A DNA stretch of 64,000 nt from Candidatus Caldarchaeales archaeon (GTDB lineage Archaea > Thermoproteota > Nitrososphaeria_A > Caldarchaeales > Calditenuaceae), in NCBI GenBank assembly GCA_039630085.1, contig JBCNVM010000003.1, positions 1 through 64,000 of the forward strand. The letters are read 5' to 3'. Made by a program: the position numbers and the translations under genes. The notes beneath the pieces were generated by a model, which searched no databases, was not told the DNA's origin, and saw only the letters and a list, made by a program, of their open reading frames with translations. Below, piece by piece: positions 1,179-35,025 of the stretch; within the stretch, counting starts at the first letter, position 1, and every line of letters starts with the position of its first letter.

Positions 1179-2065
1179 CGAAGAACTGGTCCAACGTCGG
1201 CAACGGGGTCTACCTGATCGACACGGTGGGCCCCTATTTCCCTAGGACGATCGCGTCCTACCTCGTGAGGTCGGAGAGGGGCTGGGTCCTCTTCGACACG
1301 GGCTACTCGAGCTCCGCGCACCACGTCCTCAGGGCAATAAGGGAGGTCGGCGTCGGACCGGGGGAGCTTAGGTTGGTGGTGGTCACACACGCACACCTCG
1401 ATCACTGCGGCGCGCTCGCGGAGGTCCTAGAGCGTCACCCTAAGGCGAAGGCCCTCGTCCACGAGAAGGCCTACAGGTACATGGTCGACCCTGAGAGGCT
1501 TCTGGAGTCGGTGAGGGCGCTCTTCGGCGAGGAGAACTTCAGGAGGATGGGGGGAATGAGGGGCGTGTCCGAGGAAAGGGTCGAGGTGGTCGACGACGGC
1601 GCCGAGCTGCCGCTGGGCGACAGGACGCTCAGGATATTCTACACGCCCGGCCACGCGCCCCATCACCTCTCGGTCTCGATCGATCCCCAGAGGTACGTCG
1701 TGACCGGCGACGCCGTCGCCCACAGGTCACCGCTCTTCCCGAGGCCCGTTCCTCCCACCGTGCCGCCCCGCTTCGACCTTGACAGCTATCTCAGGAGCCT
1801 GAGGAGGATCTTCGAGCATGAACCGAGGCTTCTTCTCAGACCCCACTACGGCCCTGGCACGACGCCCGAGGGCGCCCTCGAGGACGAGGTGGAGGTCGTC
1901 ACCCGGTGGATGGAGAGGGTGAGGGACCTTAAGAGGGAGTCGGCAGACCCGATCTCTATTGGCTGGAGGATACTAGACGAGGACTTCGGTGGCCGCGACA
2001 ACGTCGTCTCGTACGCGAGGGACGTGGTCCGCGTCTTCGTGCTGGGAGCCTACCTCTCGCTCTGA
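1175..2065 (+). CDS. MBL-fold metallo-hydrolase
   Basis: THAHLDHCG (HxHxDH), TPGHAPHH, TGD and PHYG motifs. Confidence 0.9.
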   Translation: MTKNWSNVGNGVYLIDTVGPYFPRTIASYLVRSERGWVLFDTGYSSSAHHVLRAIREVGVGPGELRLVVVTHAHLDHCGALAEVLERHPKAKALVHEKAYRYMVDPERLLESVRALFGEENFRRMGGMRGVSEERVEVVDDGAELPLGDRTLRIFYTPGHAPHHLSVSIDPQRYVVTGDAVAHRSPLFPRPVPPTVPPRFDLDSYLRSLRRIFEHEPRLLLRPHYGPGTTPEGALEDEVEVVTRWMERVRDLKRESADPISIGWRILDEDFGGRDNVVSYARDVVRVFVLGAYLSL

Positions 2066-2193
2066 CGGCCCAGCGCCCTCTTGCCGACGGACCTAGCCTC
2101 CTCTCGGAGCGCGGCCTTGAACTCCTCCACCAACCTCTTGGTCTCTGCGATGAGGCGCTCGATCTCCCTCCTGAGCTCCGATTCGGCGCTCAC
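2050..2193 (-). CDS. 47-aa coiled-coil microprotein (not in ORF track)
   Basis: GTG..TAG frame MSAESELRREIERLIAETKRLVEEFKAALREEARSVGKRALGRQSER with genome-typical codons; TTTAATAG TATA-like element ~25-30 nt upstream. Confidence 0.55.
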   Translation of the reverse strand: MSAESELRREIERLIAETKRLVEEFKAALREEARSVGKRALGRQSER

Positions 2194-2298
2194 GCTCCCC
2201 GACGCATGTCCCTCGCTATTAAACCCGAAAGCGTTCAGGTCGGTCCACGATGGCCCTCTCTCGAGGGCCGTGTCAGAGCGTCCGGGTTGGCAGTCAGG

Positions 2299-2946
2299 TC
2301 ACCTGAGCCCTAGGAGGAAGCTCGCGGAAATCAGCAGCAGGACCGCACCGCTGACCTTGGGAACGTAGCGCTCGTACCTCCCGATGCGCCGCTCGACTCT
2401 GTCGTACGTTCTCGCAGCGACGACCGTTACCCCGATGAGCCCCGCGGAGACCGCGGACGAGTAGACCAGCATGAGCCCCAAGGGGTCGATGCCGCCGACC
2501 GCGAGGGCCAGCAGCACGAACTCCTCCTCGTGAGCGAAGCCCAGGACGAACGCCGCGGCCGCCAGCCCCTTCAGTCCTATCAGCTCCGGGCCCCTGGAGC
2601 GATCATGGCCTCCGTGTCCGTGGTCCTGAGGGTTATCGTCGCGGCCCTCCTTCGTCAGGATCAGCTTAACTCCGAAGGCCAGGAGGACCAGCCCGGCCAC
2701 GACGTTCACGTACGGCAACGAGATGGGCATGAAAGCCCTTAGGACGACGTAGGCTAGCACCGCTGCCAGAGAAGATATTATGTGGAAGAACGATATAATA
2801 GAACTTCCGACGAGCGCCCTCAGGGTGCGCCTCGAGCCCCTGACCGCGTAAAGGATCGCGAGGGGCCAGCCGTGGCCCGGCTCCAACCCGTGAAGCATCC
2901 CGAGAGCGGCGACTGCGGCGTAGGTCGGCTCTATCACCGGCCTCAT
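2299..2946 (-). CDS. Nickel/cobalt transporter-like membrane protein (NiCoT/UreH/RcnA-related)
   Basis: LGMLHGLEPGHGW motif, His-rich loop DHGHGGHD, ~6 TM helices. Confidence 0.75.
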   Translation of the reverse strand: MRPVIEPTYAAVAALGMLHGLEPGHGWPLAILYAVRGSRRTLRALVGSSIISFFHIISSLAAVLAYVVLRAFMPISLPYVNVVAGLVLLAFGVKLILTKEGRDDNPQDHGHGGHDRSRGPELIGLKGLAAAAFVLGFAHEEEFVLLALAVGGIDPLGLMLVYSSAVSAGLIGVTVVAARTYDRVERRIGRYERYVPKVSGAVLLLISASFLLGLR

Positions 2947-3124
2947 GCCCCCGGCCCAATTAATAAACGGAGGAAGACGTCGCTTGAGCGCTCGACATCC
3001 CGATGGGACTGCTGGGGCCTAACTTCGTCCCTGTCCTCTTGGTATATCGCCGCCTGCAGGCCCGAGGACGTCCCGCAACGCATATAAGGGAGTGAAGTCC
3101 GTAGTAACGTAGGTATAAGGTCGT

Positions 3125-3601
3125 ATGAAAGTAAGGCTCCGGATACCGGTCCTAAGGGACTTCGCGTACGAGGTCGAGGTCGAAGATCCGTCGGAACTCA
3201 AACCGGAGGCGCTCCAAGAGGTTCACACCCGGGTTCTGGAGGTGCTCGAGGCCGTCAGGAGGCAGGCTCTGGTCACGCAGGCGCCCGAAGTCGAGGGCTG
3301 GTTCGACCTCACGGGAGACGTTCCGCACATGGGCAGGCTCGTCAGGGACCTTCCGCTCAAGGACCAGATACTTCTAGCATACTACGCCTGGGACCAGAAG
3401 GGCAGGAAGCAGTTGAAGCCCATAGAGGTCTACGAGTTCCTCAGGAACGACGGTTTTCCGGTGAACTACGGGAGCGTCGTGGCGAGGATAGCGGAGCTGA
3501 CTAGGGATGGCCTCCTGATCAGGGAGGCTGACGGGACCTACAGGCTGAGCAGGTACGGGACCGAGAGGGCCCAAACCCTGATCTCTCCGAAGCCCACATG
3601 A
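3125..3601 (+). CDS. Hypothetical protein with C-terminal winged-helix DNA-binding domain
   Basis: C-terminal SVVARIAELTRDGLLIREADGTYRLSRYG wing pattern. Confidence 0.6.
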   Translation: MKVRLRIPVLRDFAYEVEVEDPSELKPEALQEVHTRVLEVLEAVRRQALVTQAPEVEGWFDLTGDVPHMGRLVRDLPLKDQILLAYYAWDQKGRKQLKPIEVYEFLRNDGFPVNYGSVVARIAELTRDGLLIREADGTYRLSRYGTERAQTLISPKPT

Positions 3602-14396: not shown

Positions 14397-15275
14397 ATGG
14401 AGAGGCCGCCCTGGCTTAAGGTGGTCCTGCCCCACGGCCCGGTCTACGAGAGGGTGAGGGAGGTCGTAAGGAGGCACGGGCTCCACACGGTCTGCCAGTC
14501 CGCTGTCTGTCCCAACCTGGGGGAGTGCTGGGGTTCCGGGACCGCCACGTTCATGATCCTCGGGGACGTCTGCACTAGGGGCTGCAGGTTCTGCGCGGTC
14601 ACCCACGGCAACCCGAGGGGGGCGGTGGACCTCGTGGAGCCCGAGAGGGTCGCTGCGGCGGTCTCCGAGCTCGGCCTCAGCTACGTCGTCATCACGTCGG
14701 TCTGCAGGGACGACCTCCCCGACGGGGGCGCCTCGGCCTTCGCGGAGACCGTGAGGGCGGTGAAGCGGAGGAGTCCCGGCGTCCTGGTCGAGGTTCTGAT
14801 TCCGGACTTCGGGGGCGAGAGGGGCGCGATCGAGGAGGTGGTGAGGGCGGGGCCGGATGTCGTCGGGCACAACGTCGAGACCGTGAGGAGGCTCACGCCT
14901 GTCGTCAGGGACAGGAGGGCTTCCTACGAGAGGTCGCTGGATGTCCTCAGGACGGTAAAGGAGGTCGACCCGAGGAGAATCACCAAGTCCTCGATAATGC
15001 TGGGGCTCGGCGAGACCGACGACGAGGTCATAGAGACGCTGAGGGACCTTAGGGCCGCGGGCGTGGACGTCGTGACCATGGGCCAGTACCTGAGGCCGCT
15101 CGACTCGCCCCTCTACCTCCCGGTCGTCGAGTACGTGAGGCCCGAGAGGTTCAGGGAGCTGGAGGAGGCCGCGTACCGCATGGGCTTCCTCTACGTCGCC
15201 TCCGGGCCGCTCGTCAGGAGCTCCTACAGGGCCGCAGAGGCCTTCGTCGCCTCGCTGGTGAGGGGCGTTGCGTGA
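14397..15275 (+). CDS. lipA: Lipoyl synthase
   Basis: CX4CX5C (CQSAVCPNLGEC), radical SAM CTRGCRFC, HNVETV, RSSY. Confidence 0.97.
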   Translation: MERPPWLKVVLPHGPVYERVREVVRRHGLHTVCQSAVCPNLGECWGSGTATFMILGDVCTRGCRFCAVTHGNPRGAVDLVEPERVAAAVSELGLSYVVITSVCRDDLPDGGASAFAETVRAVKRRSPGVLVEVLIPDFGGERGAIEEVVRAGPDVVGHNVETVRRLTPVVRDRRASYERSLDVLRTVKEVDPRRITKSSIMLGLGETDDEVIETLRDLRAAGVDVVTMGQYLRPLDSPLYLPVVEYVRPERFRELEEAAYRMGFLYVASGPLVRSSYRAAEAFVASLVRGVA

Positions 15276-15957
15276 GGCCAGGAGACTCCTCTTCTGCGAC
15301 CTCGGGAGGACCGATTACGACGACTGCCACAGGCTGATGCTGGGGCTGGTCGGACTCAGGTCAAGGGGGGAGGTCGGGGACGTCGTCCTCATCACGGAGC
15401 ACGAGCACGTCTACACGCTCGGGAGGCACTCGAGACCCGACCAGGTGATCGACGGCTCCGTTACGGTGAGGGCCGTCGAGAGGGCTGGAGGGCCTACCTA
15501 CCACGGTCCAGGTCAGCTCGTCGCCTACCCGGTGATCAGGCTCGCGGACTGGGGGCTGGGGCCCGCGGACCTAGTCAGGGCCTTGGAGGCCTCGGTGGTC
15601 TCCGTTCTCAGGGAGCTGGGGATCGGTTCGGAGCCGGGGAGCACCTCGGGCAGGCCGGGCGTCTGGGTCGACGGAAGGAAGATCGCCTCGATCGGTATGG
15701 CGGTCAGGGACGGAGTCGGCTTCCACGGCGTCGCGCTCAACGTCTCTGTCGATCTCACGAAGTTCCACGGGATCTTCCCCTGCGGCATGCCGCCCGACGT
15801 GATGACCTCGGTCGAGCGGGAGCTCGGCGGTCGGGTCGATCTGGATCGCGTCAAGCTGCTTTTCGTCAGGGAGTTCTCGGCGCTGCTCGGCGCCGAACCC
15901 GTCCCAGTACGGAGGGAGGATCTCGTCTCCGGGGCGATCCGAACGCTGTTCACGTGA
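15268..15957 (+). CDS. lipB: Lipoyl(octanoyl) transferase
   Basis: EHEHVYTLGR, RAGGPTYHGPGQLVAYP, KIASIG, FHGVALNV, PCG. Confidence 0.93.
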   Translation: MREARRLLFCDLGRTDYDDCHRLMLGLVGLRSRGEVGDVVLITEHEHVYTLGRHSRPDQVIDGSVTVRAVERAGGPTYHGPGQLVAYPVIRLADWGLGPADLVRALEASVVSVLRELGIGSEPGSTSGRPGVWVDGRKIASIGMAVRDGVGFHGVALNVSVDLTKFHGIFPCGMPPDVMTSVERELGGRVDLDRVKLLFVREFSALLGAEPVPVRREDLVSGAIRTLFT

Positions 15958-16054
15958 AGCCGGTCCTAAGACGGTTCGAGGCGCGCTCCGGACATGGACG
16001 CTCGTCCTGAGGCGTAATACCCTGAAATTTCGAACGTCGACGAGGTGCTAAACC

Positions 16055-16064
16055 GAATTATATC
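16055..16064 (+). promoter_or_regulatory. TATA box upstream of candidate ncRNA
   Basis: GAATTATATC in an AT-rich patch ~22-28 nt before the GC-rich structured element; no plausible + strand gene downstream. Confidence 0.5.
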
Positions 16065-16080
16065 GGATACATCAATTACC

Positions 16081-16266
16081 CCGCTGGGCGGGCCGGGAGA
16101 GGTGGTGCCTGGTTCGTGGGGGAAGCCTCGCGGGCTGGGTGCCTCGCTCGGCCCCGGAGGCCCGAAAGGGCTGCTGCGTCCGGGCGGGGCACGGGGACGC
16201 TCTGCCCACCGGCGGCGACCGGGAAGGTGGGCGTGAGGGCCTGCCCCACCGAAAGCCCGCCCGTGG
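16081..16266 (+). ncRNA. Unassigned structured ncRNA candidate (~185 nt, multi-way junction)
   Basis: Terminal helix GGGCGGGC(16086-93)/GCCCGCCC(16255-62), GGUGG/CCACC and three internal hairpins rich in G-U pairs, one with a GAAA tetraloop; upstream TATA. Confidence 0.6.
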
Positions 16267-16283
16267 TTTCTCCGAAGTTCGCT

Positions 16284-18590
16284 TCACCCACTCCTCGATC
16301 TCATCAGGGACCAGAGGTAGTCCGGGGTCAGAGGCGTCCTCTCAATCGCGATGCTCAAGTGGGAGAGCGCGTCCTCGACCGCGTTCACGACGGCCTGTGC
16401 GAACCCGATGGTCGCCGCCTCGCCGACGCCCTTCGCGCCGAGCGGGTTGGGTGCCGGCGTGACCGTCCTCTCCAAGACGAACTCCGGGACCTCGCACGCG
16501 GTCGGTACGAGGTAGTCGGCGAGGCTCTCGGTGAGGAGGTTGCCTTCCGGGCCGTAACGGACCTCCTCGAGGAGCGCTTGGCCGAGGGCCTGGACCGCGC
16601 CCCCGACGATCTGGCCCTCGACGAGCATCGGGTTGACGACGTTGCCCGCGTCGTCGACGAGAACAGCCCTCTTCACCTCCACCCGACCGGTCTCAGGGTC
16701 GACCTCGACGACCGCGACGTGAGCCCCGAACGGGTACGTCAACTTGGGGACGTGGTGGGCGTACGCCTCGAGCCCCGCCTCCTCTCCGTCCGGCAGCTCC
16801 GACTCGTCGTAGGCTGCCCTCGCGACCTCCTCGAAGCCCACCGACTTCTCGGGCACCCCCTTCACGCTGAACCGGCCCTCGACGAGCTCCACGTCTTCCG
16901 GCCTCGCCTCAAGGAGGTGAGCCGCGATCCTCCGCATCTTCTCCGTGACCCGCCCGCACGCCGAGAGTATCGCAGCGCCGCCCGAGACCAAGGTCCAGCT
17001 GCCCGCAGTACCGCTCCCGTATGGCGCGCTCTCCGTGTCCCCGAAGGCCAGGCTCACGTCCTCGATCCCGATCCCGAAGTAGTCTGCCACGAGCTGCGCG
17101 AAGGCCGTCAGGTCTCCCTGGCCGTGCGGCGACGTGCTGGTGAAGACGGTCACCTTCCCGTCGGGCTCGACCCTAACCTTCGCAGATTGTGAGGCGAAGT
17201 TGCAGACCTCGACGTAGCTGGAGATCCCGAGCCCGATCATCCTGCCCATCTCCCTAGCCCTCTTCTTCTCCTCCCTCCACCTCTGGTAGTCGACGAGCTC
17301 CAGCGCCCTGCGCAGGGCCGCCTCGTAGTCGCCGCTGTCGTACTCGTGCCCGCCGACCGTCCTGTAGGGGAACTCGTCCCTCCGGATGAAGTTCCTGAGC
17401 CTCAGCTCCGCGGGGTCGATCCCCAGCTCCCTCGCGAGCCTCTCGACGCTCCTCTCGATCAGGAACGACGCCTCCGGCCTCCCGGCTCCCCTGTAGGGCG
17501 CCGTCGGAACCTTGTTGGTGAAGGCCCCGACCACCCTCCCCTCGAAGCCGGCGAGCCTGTAGACGCCGGGCACCATCCCGAGCATCCCGGTGAAGACCGA
17601 CTGAGTCAGGTTGTAGAAGTAGGCCCCGACGTCCCCGATCGCCTGCACCCTAACGCCCAACAGCCTGCCGTCCGCCTTCACGGCCAGCTCCACCCTTGCT
17701 ACCAGTCCCCTCCCGTGCGCCGTCGATGAGAGGTTCTCGCGCCTCGTCTCGACCCACTTCACCGGCCTCCCGAGCGCGACCGATGCCGCGGGGACCGCGA
17801 CGTCCTCGGGGTACTGGGGGATCTTCGACCCGAATGCGCCCCCGACGTCCCTGACCACCACCCTTACCTTGTTCTGGGGAATCCCCAAGGCCTCAGAGGT
17901 CCACTCCCTCAGCGAGTGCGGGAACTGGTGCGACGCGTGCACCTCGAGCTGGCCGGTCGAGGGGTCATAGCTCGCGAGGACGCTCCTGGGCTCGATCGGA
18001 GTCGCCGCGACCCTCTGAACGACGTATCTGTACCTCGCCACTTTGTCCGCGGACTTGAAGGCCCCGTCCGCGTCGCCGCCCGTTCTCGTGTAGGTGAAGG
18101 CGACGTTGTCTCCGAACTCCTCGTGGACCAGAGGCGCGCCGGGCTTGAGGGCCTCCTCGGGGTCCACGACTGCCTGCAGGGGCTCGTAATCGACCTCGAC
18201 TAGATCCGCCGCGTCGTAGGCCGCATAACGGTCTTCCGCGACGACCATCGCGACCGGTTCGCCAACGTACCTGACCTTCCCCTCAGCTAGCGGCTTGACC
18301 TGAGGTATCTTGGAGTACTTGGGGTTCGCGTTCACGGCCAGAGGTCCGACCCTCGGGTTCAGGTCGGCGCCCGTGAAGACCGCGACGACCCCCTTCGCCC
18401 TAAGGGCCCTGCTGACGTCGACCGACTTGATGACCGCGTGCGGGTACCTGCTCCTCACGAAGGCCGCGTGAAGGGTCCCTTGGAGCCAGAGGTCGTCGAC
18501 GAACCTGCCCCTCCCTGTCAGGAGCTTTCGGTCCTCGATCCTGGGGACGGGCCTCCCGACGTAACGCGATGCGGCCAGCCTGATACTCAT
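16284..18590 (-). CDS. Xanthine dehydrogenase-family molybdopterin-binding large subunit (CoxL form II / aldehyde oxidoreductase-like)
   Basis: RIEDRKLLTG, DVGGAFGSK, APYRGAGRPEA active-site loop (not form I AYXCSFR), PHGQG, GQIVGG..Q, GAKGVGE. Confidence 0.92.
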   Translation of the reverse strand: MSIRLAASRYVGRPVPRIEDRKLLTGRGRFVDDLWLQGTLHAAFVRSRYPHAVIKSVDVSRALRAKGVVAVFTGADLNPRVGPLAVNANPKYSKIPQVKPLAEGKVRYVGEPVAMVVAEDRYAAYDAADLVEVDYEPLQAVVDPEEALKPGAPLVHEEFGDNVAFTYTRTGGDADGAFKSADKVARYRYVVQRVAATPIEPRSVLASYDPSTGQLEVHASHQFPHSLREWTSEALGIPQNKVRVVVRDVGGAFGSKIPQYPEDVAVPAASVALGRPVKWVETRRENLSSTAHGRGLVARVELAVKADGRLLGVRVQAIGDVGAYFYNLTQSVFTGMLGMVPGVYRLAGFEGRVVGAFTNKVPTAPYRGAGRPEASFLIERSVERLARELGIDPAELRLRNFIRRDEFPYRTVGGHEYDSGDYEAALRRALELVDYQRWREEKKRAREMGRMIGLGISSYVEVCNFASQSAKVRVEPDGKVTVFTSTSPHGQGDLTAFAQLVADYFGIGIEDVSLAFGDTESAPYGSGTAGSWTLVSGGAAILSACGRVTEKMRRIAAHLLEARPEDVELVEGRFSVKGVPEKSVGFEEVARAAYDESELPDGEEAGLEAYAHHVPKLTYPFGAHVAVVEVDPETGRVEVKRAVLVDDAGNVVNPMLVEGQIVGGAVQALGQALLEEVRYGPEGNLLTESLADYLVPTACEVPEFVLERTVTPAPNPLGAKGVGEAATIGFAQAVVNAVEDALSHLSIAIERTPLTPDYLWSLMRSRSG

Positions 18591-18626
18591 CAGCGTGTCA
18601 GAGGACCGCACGAGATAACTGTTCCC

Positions 18627-34940: not shown

Positions 34941-35025
34941 GCGGGGGTAGCCAAGCCTGGTCAAAGGCGCAGGGCTCAGGGCCCTGTCCCGTAGGGGTTC
35001 GTGGGTTCGAATCCCACCCCCCGCA
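34941..35025 (+). tRNA. tRNA-Leu (CAG), long variable arm, CCA not encoded
   Basis: GCGGGGG/CCCCCGC acceptor, CAGGG-CT-CAG-GG-CCCTG anticodon arm, GTGGG-TTCGAAT-CCCAC T arm. Confidence 0.97.

Follow-up and report, generated by a model that had tools for sequence, protein, structure and literature searches.

The window, by which we mean the whole stretch of 64,000 nucleotides analysed, almost certainly contains a real gene for a structured RNA at positions 16084 to 16264 of the + strand. The RNA, about 180 nt long, probably stands alone and acts in trans; its boundaries are predicted ends taken from the match to our covariance model R1. Upstream lies a lipB-like gene of the LplA-B_cat type (15268-15957, + strand), and the next real gene is a coxL-like gene (MoCoBD/Ald_Xan_dh_C, 775 aa; 16284-18611, - strand), which is convergent with the RNA. 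This is the placement between lipB and a coxL-like gene that had been given in an earlier note on this DNA. An A-rich, BRE-like stretch, AAACCGAA, stands directly before the TATA box TTATAT at 16058-16063; together they occupy 16050-16063 (+ strand), and their centre is some 25 nt upstream of the RNA 5' end. The earlier note had seen a TATA-like sequence at this position, and the box is confirmed. The spacing between box and RNA is unchanged among relatives in the genus, and TATA boxes occur 25 to 30 nt upstream of the RNA in every lineage with homologues, including other genera and classes. Transcription of the RNA gene is predicted from the sequence. A pyrimidine- and T-rich tail, GGTTTCTCC (16265-16275, + strand), follows the RNA and is a putative archaeal terminator; T-rich tracts are also present 3' of the RNA in AT-rich relatives. 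No gene was found downstream of the RNA on the + strand among the flanking ORFs of the window, which agrees with the earlier preference for a trans-acting RNA over a riboswitch. The feature is present as a single copy in the host genome.

The MFE fold of 16084-16264 (+ strand) has 69 pairs, of which 13 are G-U. A terminal helix, P1, of 9 bp leads through an asymmetric purine-rich internal loop (7 nt/4 nt) to P2 and then to a four-way junction with the hairpins P3 to P5. P1 is formed by UGGGCGGGC (16085-16093) and GCCCGCCCG (16255-16263), and 7 of its 9 pairs show double changes among 25 sequences. The internal loop reads CGGGAGA on the 5' side (16094-16100; family consensus C-G-R-N-A-N-A) and GAAA on the 3' side (16251-16254; consensus G-A-R-N). 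P2 pairs GGUGG (16101-16105) with CCACC (16246-16250); 99.2% of its alignment cells are paired, with two of the five pairs covarying and three invariant. The G-U-rich P3 hairpin (16107-16138) consists of the helix 16109-16121/16126-16138 closed by a GAAG loop, with the apex GGGG-GAAG-CCUC, and 14 of its 14 pairs show double changes. The P4 hairpin (16139-16192) has the helix 16139-16151/16180-16192 and an upper stem capped by GAAA at 16164-16167, while the apical part of the P5 hairpin (16194-16242) differs among genera. All of these elements lie on the + strand, and the fold reproduces almost base for base the helices P1 to P5 that had been proposed by eye.

The free energy of this fold was compared with that of dinucleotide shuffles, a check suggested in the earlier note. 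The + strand of 16080-16270 folds at -124.3 kcal/mol (z = -3.20) and none of 200 shuffles was as good, whereas the - strand reaches -94.0 kcal/mol (z = -0.59), a value that 58 of 200 shuffles equalled or bettered. The fold thus exceeds what chance would give, and does so only on the + strand. The same preference is seen in two distant homologues, L049 (-122.5 kcal/mol on the assigned strand versus -98.2 on its complement) and L125 (-121.3 versus -101.1). These values bear out the proposal that the element is a + strand RNA, not a DNA cruciform. The proposal of a stand-alone gene with its own archaeal promoter is also supported, the BRE/TATA element lying about 25 nt upstream of the strand-specific fold.

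A blastn search of 61 relatives, the RNA's own genome included, detected it in that genome and in four others of the genus. The five sequences are 77 to 93% identical and share a single RNAalifold structure of 68 pairs, 11 of which have compensatory changes; the two most distant of them fold alone to the common shape with z scores of -4.0 and -6.5. R1 was built from these five sequences of one genus, and all of our model searches rest on it. The window copy scores 170.2 bits with R1, full-length matches were found in a second family of the order and, with laxer filters, a second genus of its own family was also recovered. A pattern for the conserved-loop motif matched 32 of 76 genomes of the order as compared to 6 genomes for a reversed-pattern control, and 29 of the 32 had either a complementary P1 or an adjoining gene for the partner protein discussed below. 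The other three pattern matches (G054:C1, G069:C2 and G074:C58) were rejected with only 2 to 4 of 8 P1 pairs, as was a match in genome G005 at E 0.94 that had neither motif nor promoter. With R1, the motif pattern and inspection by eye combined, the RNA is present in 44 of the 76 Caldarchaeales genomes, and the family extends to Nitrosocaldus, other Nitrososphaerales and Bathyarchaeia. In 401 genomes of the phylum, matches to the Caldarchaeales motif pattern outside the order were no commoner than those to the reversed-pattern control, and the 10 such loci that we examined had only 1 to 4 of 8 P1 pairs each. A Nitrososphaerales-type pattern matched 4 of the 401 genomes, none of them convincingly.

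The covariation in this family is strong. When 25 sequences were aligned to R1, 92.8% of cells were paired and 62 of 67 pairs had changed on both sides, although these counts come from an alignment fitted to R1 and so favour the structure. None of 500 column shuffles reached any of five measures, and sliding the partner by one to three columns left 40 to 47% of cells paired. P1 and P2 can be read without an alignment, anchored by the loop motifs, and about a dozen fully complementary sequence versions of these helices occur among the homologues. Thus, the covarying homologues that the earlier note had asked for are found both within the genus and beyond it. All homologues examined fold to one common four-way junction. 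In AT-rich relatives the RNA forms an island of 61 to 70% G+C with a strong BRE/TATA box 25 to 30 nt upstream. The window copy has every feature by which we define the family, namely a P1 of at least 8 of 9 bp, a purine-rich 7/4-nt loop, P2, a three-hairpin junction, a length of 165 to 245 nt and an upstream promoter box.

Strong sequence conservation is limited to the P1/P2 internal loop. The hairpin tips vary and carry only stable caps (GNRA, UUCG, GAAG); in relatives the P4 cap is a GNRA or UUCG-type tetraloop and is not sequence-specific. The P3 apex of Caldarchaeales, Nitrosocaldus and other Nitrososphaerales repeatedly resembles GGGRAAGCC. Conservation of the apical part of P5 does not reach beyond the genus of the window. 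The earlier note had read the P1/P2 loop as a kink-turn and a potential L7Ae site. Kink-turns have a 3-nt bulge followed by tandem sheared G-A and A-G pairs, with a G-A pair directly beside the bulge and the canonical stem. If loop positions 1 to 3 formed the bulge, position 4 would have to be G; across 43 distinct homologues it is mostly A (26), with G in 15 and C in 2. The cross-strand partner for the second pair would also have to be G; 36 of the 43 have A there, 5 have G and 2 have C. The other register, which would leave two extra nucleotides between the GA and P1, has a G at position 6 in 17 of 43. As the loop descriptor for these homologues fixed A5, A7 and the 3' GA, only the free positions are informative. 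The loop is therefore not a canonical kink-turn, as the defining G-A pair is not conserved: the required G is present in 15 of 43 (or 17 of 43) and its partner is A in 36 of 43. Position 5 of the loop is U in two Nitrosocaldus copies. The RNA does share with the kink-turn RNAs of archaea (the L7Ae-bound box C/D, H/ACA, RNase P and SRP RNAs) an asymmetric purine-rich loop between helices, an A-G juxtaposition beside P2 and an archaeal host, but differs in the unconserved G-A pair, in two extra nucleotides on the short strand before the flanking helix, and in lacking C/D boxes, ACA boxes and any Rfam match.

A second structural suggestion, that P5 resembles the T-loop module of cobalamin riboswitches, is not supported either: the P5 apex is not conserved beyond the genus and no Rfam cobalamin model scores at E <= 10. 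The helix-closed four-way junction and the GGGAA- and GCCAC-like strings in some members are reminiscent of the cobalamin aptamer, whereas the absence of an Rfam score at E <= 10, the lack of a downstream gene and the genus-specific P5 element are not. As a class, cobalamin riboswitches, which are recognised by the Rfam aptamer models, a conserved B12 box, T-loop elements and a gene downstream, are excluded, with no match from the clan at E <= 10 in the region or at E <= 5 in five homologous loci and no downstream gene on the + strand.

Other known RNAs fared no better. Scanning the entire window with cmscan and the Rfam 15 models, as the earlier note had proposed, gave three tRNAs elsewhere at the gathering score and nothing at the RNA. 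At E <= 10, nothing was found on the + strand of 15900-16400; matches to mir-2774, c-di-GMP-II-GCG, CRISPR-DR29 and snoU83B were far below the gathering score and on the - strand, and we take them as chance. Eight related loci matched no family at the gathering score, and five homologous loci from five lineages gave nothing relevant at E <= 5. RNase P RNA is excluded, as the RF00373 match in this genome lies elsewhere (G000:C12:108011-108299, 142.7 bits), and SRP RNA is excluded likewise, the best and only RF01857 match being full length at G000:C34:49772-50096 (75.1 bits, E 3.4e-17). tRNA, 5S, box C/D and H/ACA RNAs are excluded by the lack of any Rfam match on the + strand inside the RNA. 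Twister-sister and other self-cleaving ribozyme models gave no match in the window, the region or the five loci. The earlier failure to match the element to tRNA, 5S, SRP, RNase P, C/D or H/ACA consensus hence holds, with the RNase P and SRP RNAs on other contigs. In a full-text search of the published literature, the titles and abstract openings returned contained nothing relevant to the RNA or to the protein described below. We conclude that the RNA represents a new family, distinct from riboswitches and guide sRNAs and from a reduced form of RNase P or SRP RNA.

The RNA is linked to a gene for a PD-(D/E)xK-fold protein. This linkage went unnoticed in the earlier note, the protein gene lying outside the window. 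In the genera that we label g3, g4, g6, g9, g12 and g14, an ORF of about 220 to 235 aa lies on the opposite strand, tail-to-tail with the RNA, and its end is separated from the RNA 3' end by 5 to 25 nt or overlaps it by 26 to 49 nt (g12 and g14). The other flank of the RNA varies by genus and may be a coxL-like gene, an SBF transporter or an M50 peptidase. A profile search found the protein in 48 of the 76 genomes of the order, and all 44 RNA-positive genomes carry it. The two genes are convergent neighbours in 38 genomes and lie at the ends of two small contigs in one genome. All five genomes from the genus of the window (g1) have the two genes unlinked; in the genome of the window the RNA is on contig C23 and the protein on contig C34 (G000:C34:61910-62530). 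Four protein-positive genomes have no detectable RNA: three near-complete ones from genus g5, which is very AT-rich, and one that is 66% complete. Conversely, no RNA was detected by the motif pattern or R1 in the 28 genomes of the order that lack the protein, nor in 10 of these with lax filters; both the pattern and the one-genus R1 miss variants, as in genus g9, which was missed by both. One genome of the otherwise negative family f4 has both genes on a 3.1-kb contig resembling genus g3, which is probably contamination.

Beyond the order, a scan of species-representative genomes with Nitrososphaerales members of the protein family yielded 80 loci with the protein, from Nitrososphaera, Nitrosocaldus, Nitrosopumilales, Nitrosomirales, Geothermarchaeales and Bathyarchaeia. 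A strict motif descriptor found nothing at these loci; inspection and a structural descriptor then revealed homologues. The RNA directly adjoins the protein gene in 14 of the 80, being in tandem downstream of it in 11 (six Nitrosocaldus-type and five from other Nitrososphaerales, Nitrosomirales or 'Nitrosopumilales' MAGs) and convergent in three (Bathyarchaeia). The tandem homologues are 217 to 229 nt long, follow the protein gene on its own strand at a distance of about 60 to 90 nt, have the same architecture and possess their own TATA box at about -27; two of them score 30.7 and 22.7 bits with R1. No RNA was found beside the protein at the other 66 loci; every locus with a Nitrososphaera or Nitrososphaeraceae label, about half of the 80 in all, is among them. 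Genome-wide searches with R1 in five genomes from these 66 loci (three Nitrososphaera-type, one Bathyarchaeota and one Geothermarchaeales) found nothing, and a loose pattern gave only coding-looking matches in the same five. At these 66 loci, either the RNA is too diverged for the narrow R1 or the protein works without an RNA.

The partner protein belongs to a large family. At least 4,339 homologues at E <= 1e-3 were found among 8,000 candidates scored; all are annotated as 'hypothetical', with source labels such as Nitrososphaerota, Aigarchaeota and Caldarchaeales. Searches against Pfam, NCBIfam and PDB sequences gave nothing significant, with one of eight members hitting the YraN model at E 0.022, and the Atlas returned only clusters of 'hypothetical protein' and a lead of 0.85 to PDDEXK_14. 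An AlphaFold model from an alignment of 82 sequences has a pLDDT of 94.4 and a pTM of 0.91; a first model from 8 sequences (pLDDT 62.3) was not used. The best VIA-align matches among representatives were 3dnx (Z 9.6), the XisH-like 2okf (Z 9.4) and AF1548 (1y88; Z 9.1), with rmsd values of 3.0 to 3.2 A over 104 to 113 residues and coverage of residues ~46 to 204, followed by AF2093, PaqCI, NucS and Can2. Foldseek gave a weak list of the PD-(D/E)xK superfamily; its best match was a CdiA-CT nuclease toxin domain at E 1e-3, with no PDB match below that value. The fold assignment hence rests on the consistency of the match list and on the VIA-align Z scores.

Residues 1 to 46 form a helical hairpin in the model. 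Residues E55, D82, E95, E97 and K120, together with K48, N50, H51, R116 and R123, are invariant in the 82 sequences. The PD-(D/E)xK core is an alpha-beta-beta-beta-alpha-beta fold; its strands 2 and 3 bear acidic residues, and a lysine is catalytic. By fold and by D82, E95, E97 and K120 the protein belongs to this superfamily, with the lysine outside the canonical E-x-K position. The invariant residues would fit an intact metal-binding nuclease centre with a lysine supplied from the following helix, as in known variants of the fold; with Glu-x-Glu in place of Glu-x-Lys, the protein is a candidate nuclease. Compared with SPO1766 (3dnx), the XisH-like proteins (2okf, 2inb), AF1548 (1y88), NucS/EndoMS and Can2, the partner protein shares the fold over residues ~46 to 204 (Z 9.6 to 7.0) and has the acidic triad on the expected elements. 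It differs from them in a sequence identity of 10 to 19% without any sequence-level match, and in its extra N-terminal helical hairpin, its Glu-x-Glu and its invariant lysine on the following helix. We know of no RNA partner for these relatives.

Our results suggest, with a probability that we put at about 0.6, that the RNA works with the PD-(D/E)xK protein as an RNP. The adjacency persists in three classes and has survived changes of orientation and of neighbouring genes, and the RNA-positive genomes are nested within the protein-positive ones; together these observations point to a joint function. Physical binding, nuclease activity and a cellular substrate would be properties that we infer for the predicted RNP. 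The protein may dock on the P1/P2 internal loop, the sole part of the RNA conserved in sequence, possibly together with the junction, and the RNA may then scaffold, target or gate the predicted nuclease activity. A more specific version, that the pair is a housekeeping RNP nuclease of Nitrososphaeria, Caldarchaeales and Bathyarchaeia in which the four-way junction activates, targets or gates the cleavage of DNA or RNA, is tentative and we regard it as doubtful. The PD-(D/E)xK fold includes junction- and structure-specific nucleases, and the presence of an RNA four-way junction beside such a fold is suggestive, no more.

It is unlikely, in our view, that this is a genuine non-coding RNA unrelated to the neighbouring protein, with the adjacency reflecting inherited gene order. 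Such a reading would account for the split of the pair in the window's genus, where both genes are kept, for the protein without a detectable RNA in genus g5, and for the lack of the RNA beside the protein at most Nitrososphaera loci; moreover, convergent genes are not co-transcribed. However, the adjacency is kept over three classes at a protein identity near 50% while the other flank and the orientation change, and the RNA is found in protein-positive genomes in 44 of 44 cases but in none of the 28 genomes without the protein. An RNA that regulates the nuclease-like gene as an antisense or from its 3' end is highly improbable. The overlap of 26 to 49 nt on the opposite strand between the RNA 3' end and the end of the ORF in g12 and g14, and the short gap of 5 to 25 nt elsewhere, are the kind of arrangement it would predict, but the RNA and the protein gene share a strand in Nitrososphaerales and lie on different contigs in the window's genus, and the conserved features of the RNA are structural and not complementary to the mRNA. 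A fold arising by chance from the high G+C content, or an element that acts as DNA, is in our view a negligible possibility: the region has about 70 to 78% G+C and shuffles already reach -109 kcal/mol, yet the fold is strand-specific here and in two distant homologues, covariation is massive (62 of 67 pairs) and the GC island with its promoter boxes is conserved in AT-rich genomes.

Two further explanations were considered. The RNA could be an inhibitor, either antitoxin-like or a gatekeeper, of a toxic PD-(D/E)xK nuclease, in a type III-like toxin-antitoxin or defence module. The tight linkage of the genes and the best Foldseek match, to the CdiA-CT toxin domain at E 1e-3, speak for this, but we consider it very unlikely: the pair occurs once per genome and has been passed on vertically among small, streamlined genomes, no mobile-element genes adjoin it in the inspected loci, the RNA is without the repeat array of known type III antitoxins and the genes are unlinked in g1. 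It is also very improbable that the RNA is self-sufficient and has no dedicated protein, as an orphan ligand-binding aptamer or a ribozyme. Its compact multi-helix junction with a conserved loop by the closing helix recalls four-way-junction riboswitches and twister-sister, and the earlier note had remarked on a cobalamin-like flavour. Against this, no gene lies downstream on the RNA strand here or in relatives, no Rfam riboswitch or ribozyme model scores and the tips are only GNRA/UUCG caps without conserved loop-loop partners. Twister-sister ribozymes are built from P1, a conserved internal loop, P2 and then a four-way junction of three hairpins. The order of elements is the same in the present RNA, but the RNA is two to three times larger, has no Rfam match and has terminal loops that are not conserved.

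To our knowledge, large structured RNAs known from archaea are very few apart from rRNA, tRNA, RNase P, SRP and guide sRNAs. The RNA described here has no Rfam family and is conserved with strong covariation over three classes of Thermoproteota, including relatives of the ammonia oxidisers, a globally important group. Its partner, an uncharacterised nuclease-fold protein, belongs to an unnamed family with more than 4,000 homologues in databases. The pair could turn out to be a new RNP enzyme or to exemplify a new form of nuclease control, and could give a function to a large family of archaeal 'hypothetical proteins' that is at present dark matter. If the reading as a housekeeping RNP nuclease were true, the pair would represent an RNA-dependent nuclease of a new class, one without relation to CRISPR, OMEGA or Argonaute systems.

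Non-coding RNAs with a dedicated neighbouring protein gene include HEARO/omega RNA with IscB, OLE RNA with OapA and Y RNA with Ro60. The present RNA has a different fold from these and occurs in archaeal hosts, no guide-like variable segment is evident in it, and the partner has a PD-(D/E)xK fold in place of RuvC/HNH, a membrane protein or TROVE. It resembles them in being a large structured RNA with its own promoter that travels and co-occurs with one protein gene.

In the window's genus, the convergent neighbour of the RNA is a coxL-like MoCoBD gene (window 16284-18611, minus strand), and in genus g3 such a gene lies upstream of the RNA on the same strand (2-1420 in locus L036 and 1745-3163 in locus L038). 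As a coxL-like gene adjoins the RNA in both genera, the gene order suggests that a local inversion moved the RNA away from the partner-protein gene in the lineage of the window's genus. At three loci of genera g14 and g12 (L042, L054 and L056), the final 26-49 nt of the RNA gene overlap, on the opposite strand, the sequence that encodes the partner protein's C-terminal extension. The overlapped segment corresponds to the 3' strands of P2 and P1, so that the RNA and partner-protein transcripts would be complementary at their 3' ends.

P1 of the RNA is weakened, with about 4 of 8 pairs left, in genome G009 (contig C13, 3902-4766; loci L029 and L097), where the partner-protein match also contains an in-frame TGA; the two genes may be decaying together. 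Only one family f4 genome, G054, carries the pair (locus L108). This copy is probably a binning contaminant, because its contig (C46) is only 3.1 kb long and the RNA resembles that of genus g3.

A 190-nt stretch immediately upstream of the partner-protein gene in a Geothermarchaeales MAG (L121, 1175-1364, plus strand) folds far better than its shuffles (z = -4.7) and has a P3-like GGGGAUGCC apex. Its predicted fold is a long rod with an internal loop different from that of the RNA; this stretch could be a homologue that has diverged. In a Nitrososphaeraceae MAG (L122, 2847-3131, plus strand), an archaeal RNase P RNA (164.7 bits) was detected approximately 700 nt downstream of a partner-protein homologue and on the same strand. 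This proximity may be a coincidence, as two Nitrososphaera-type loci were scanned and only one showed it.

In the window, an 85-nt tRNA gene (34941-35025, plus strand; Rfam tRNA model, 55.1 bits) has a 12-nt insertion relative to the model, directly 5' of the T arm. These extra nucleotides may form a long variable arm or represent a small intron. A mir-2774 match (window 15906-15949, minus strand; E = 0.0098) falls within the lipB-like coding region and scores 21.1 bits, far below the model's gathering score of 51; it was taken as chance.
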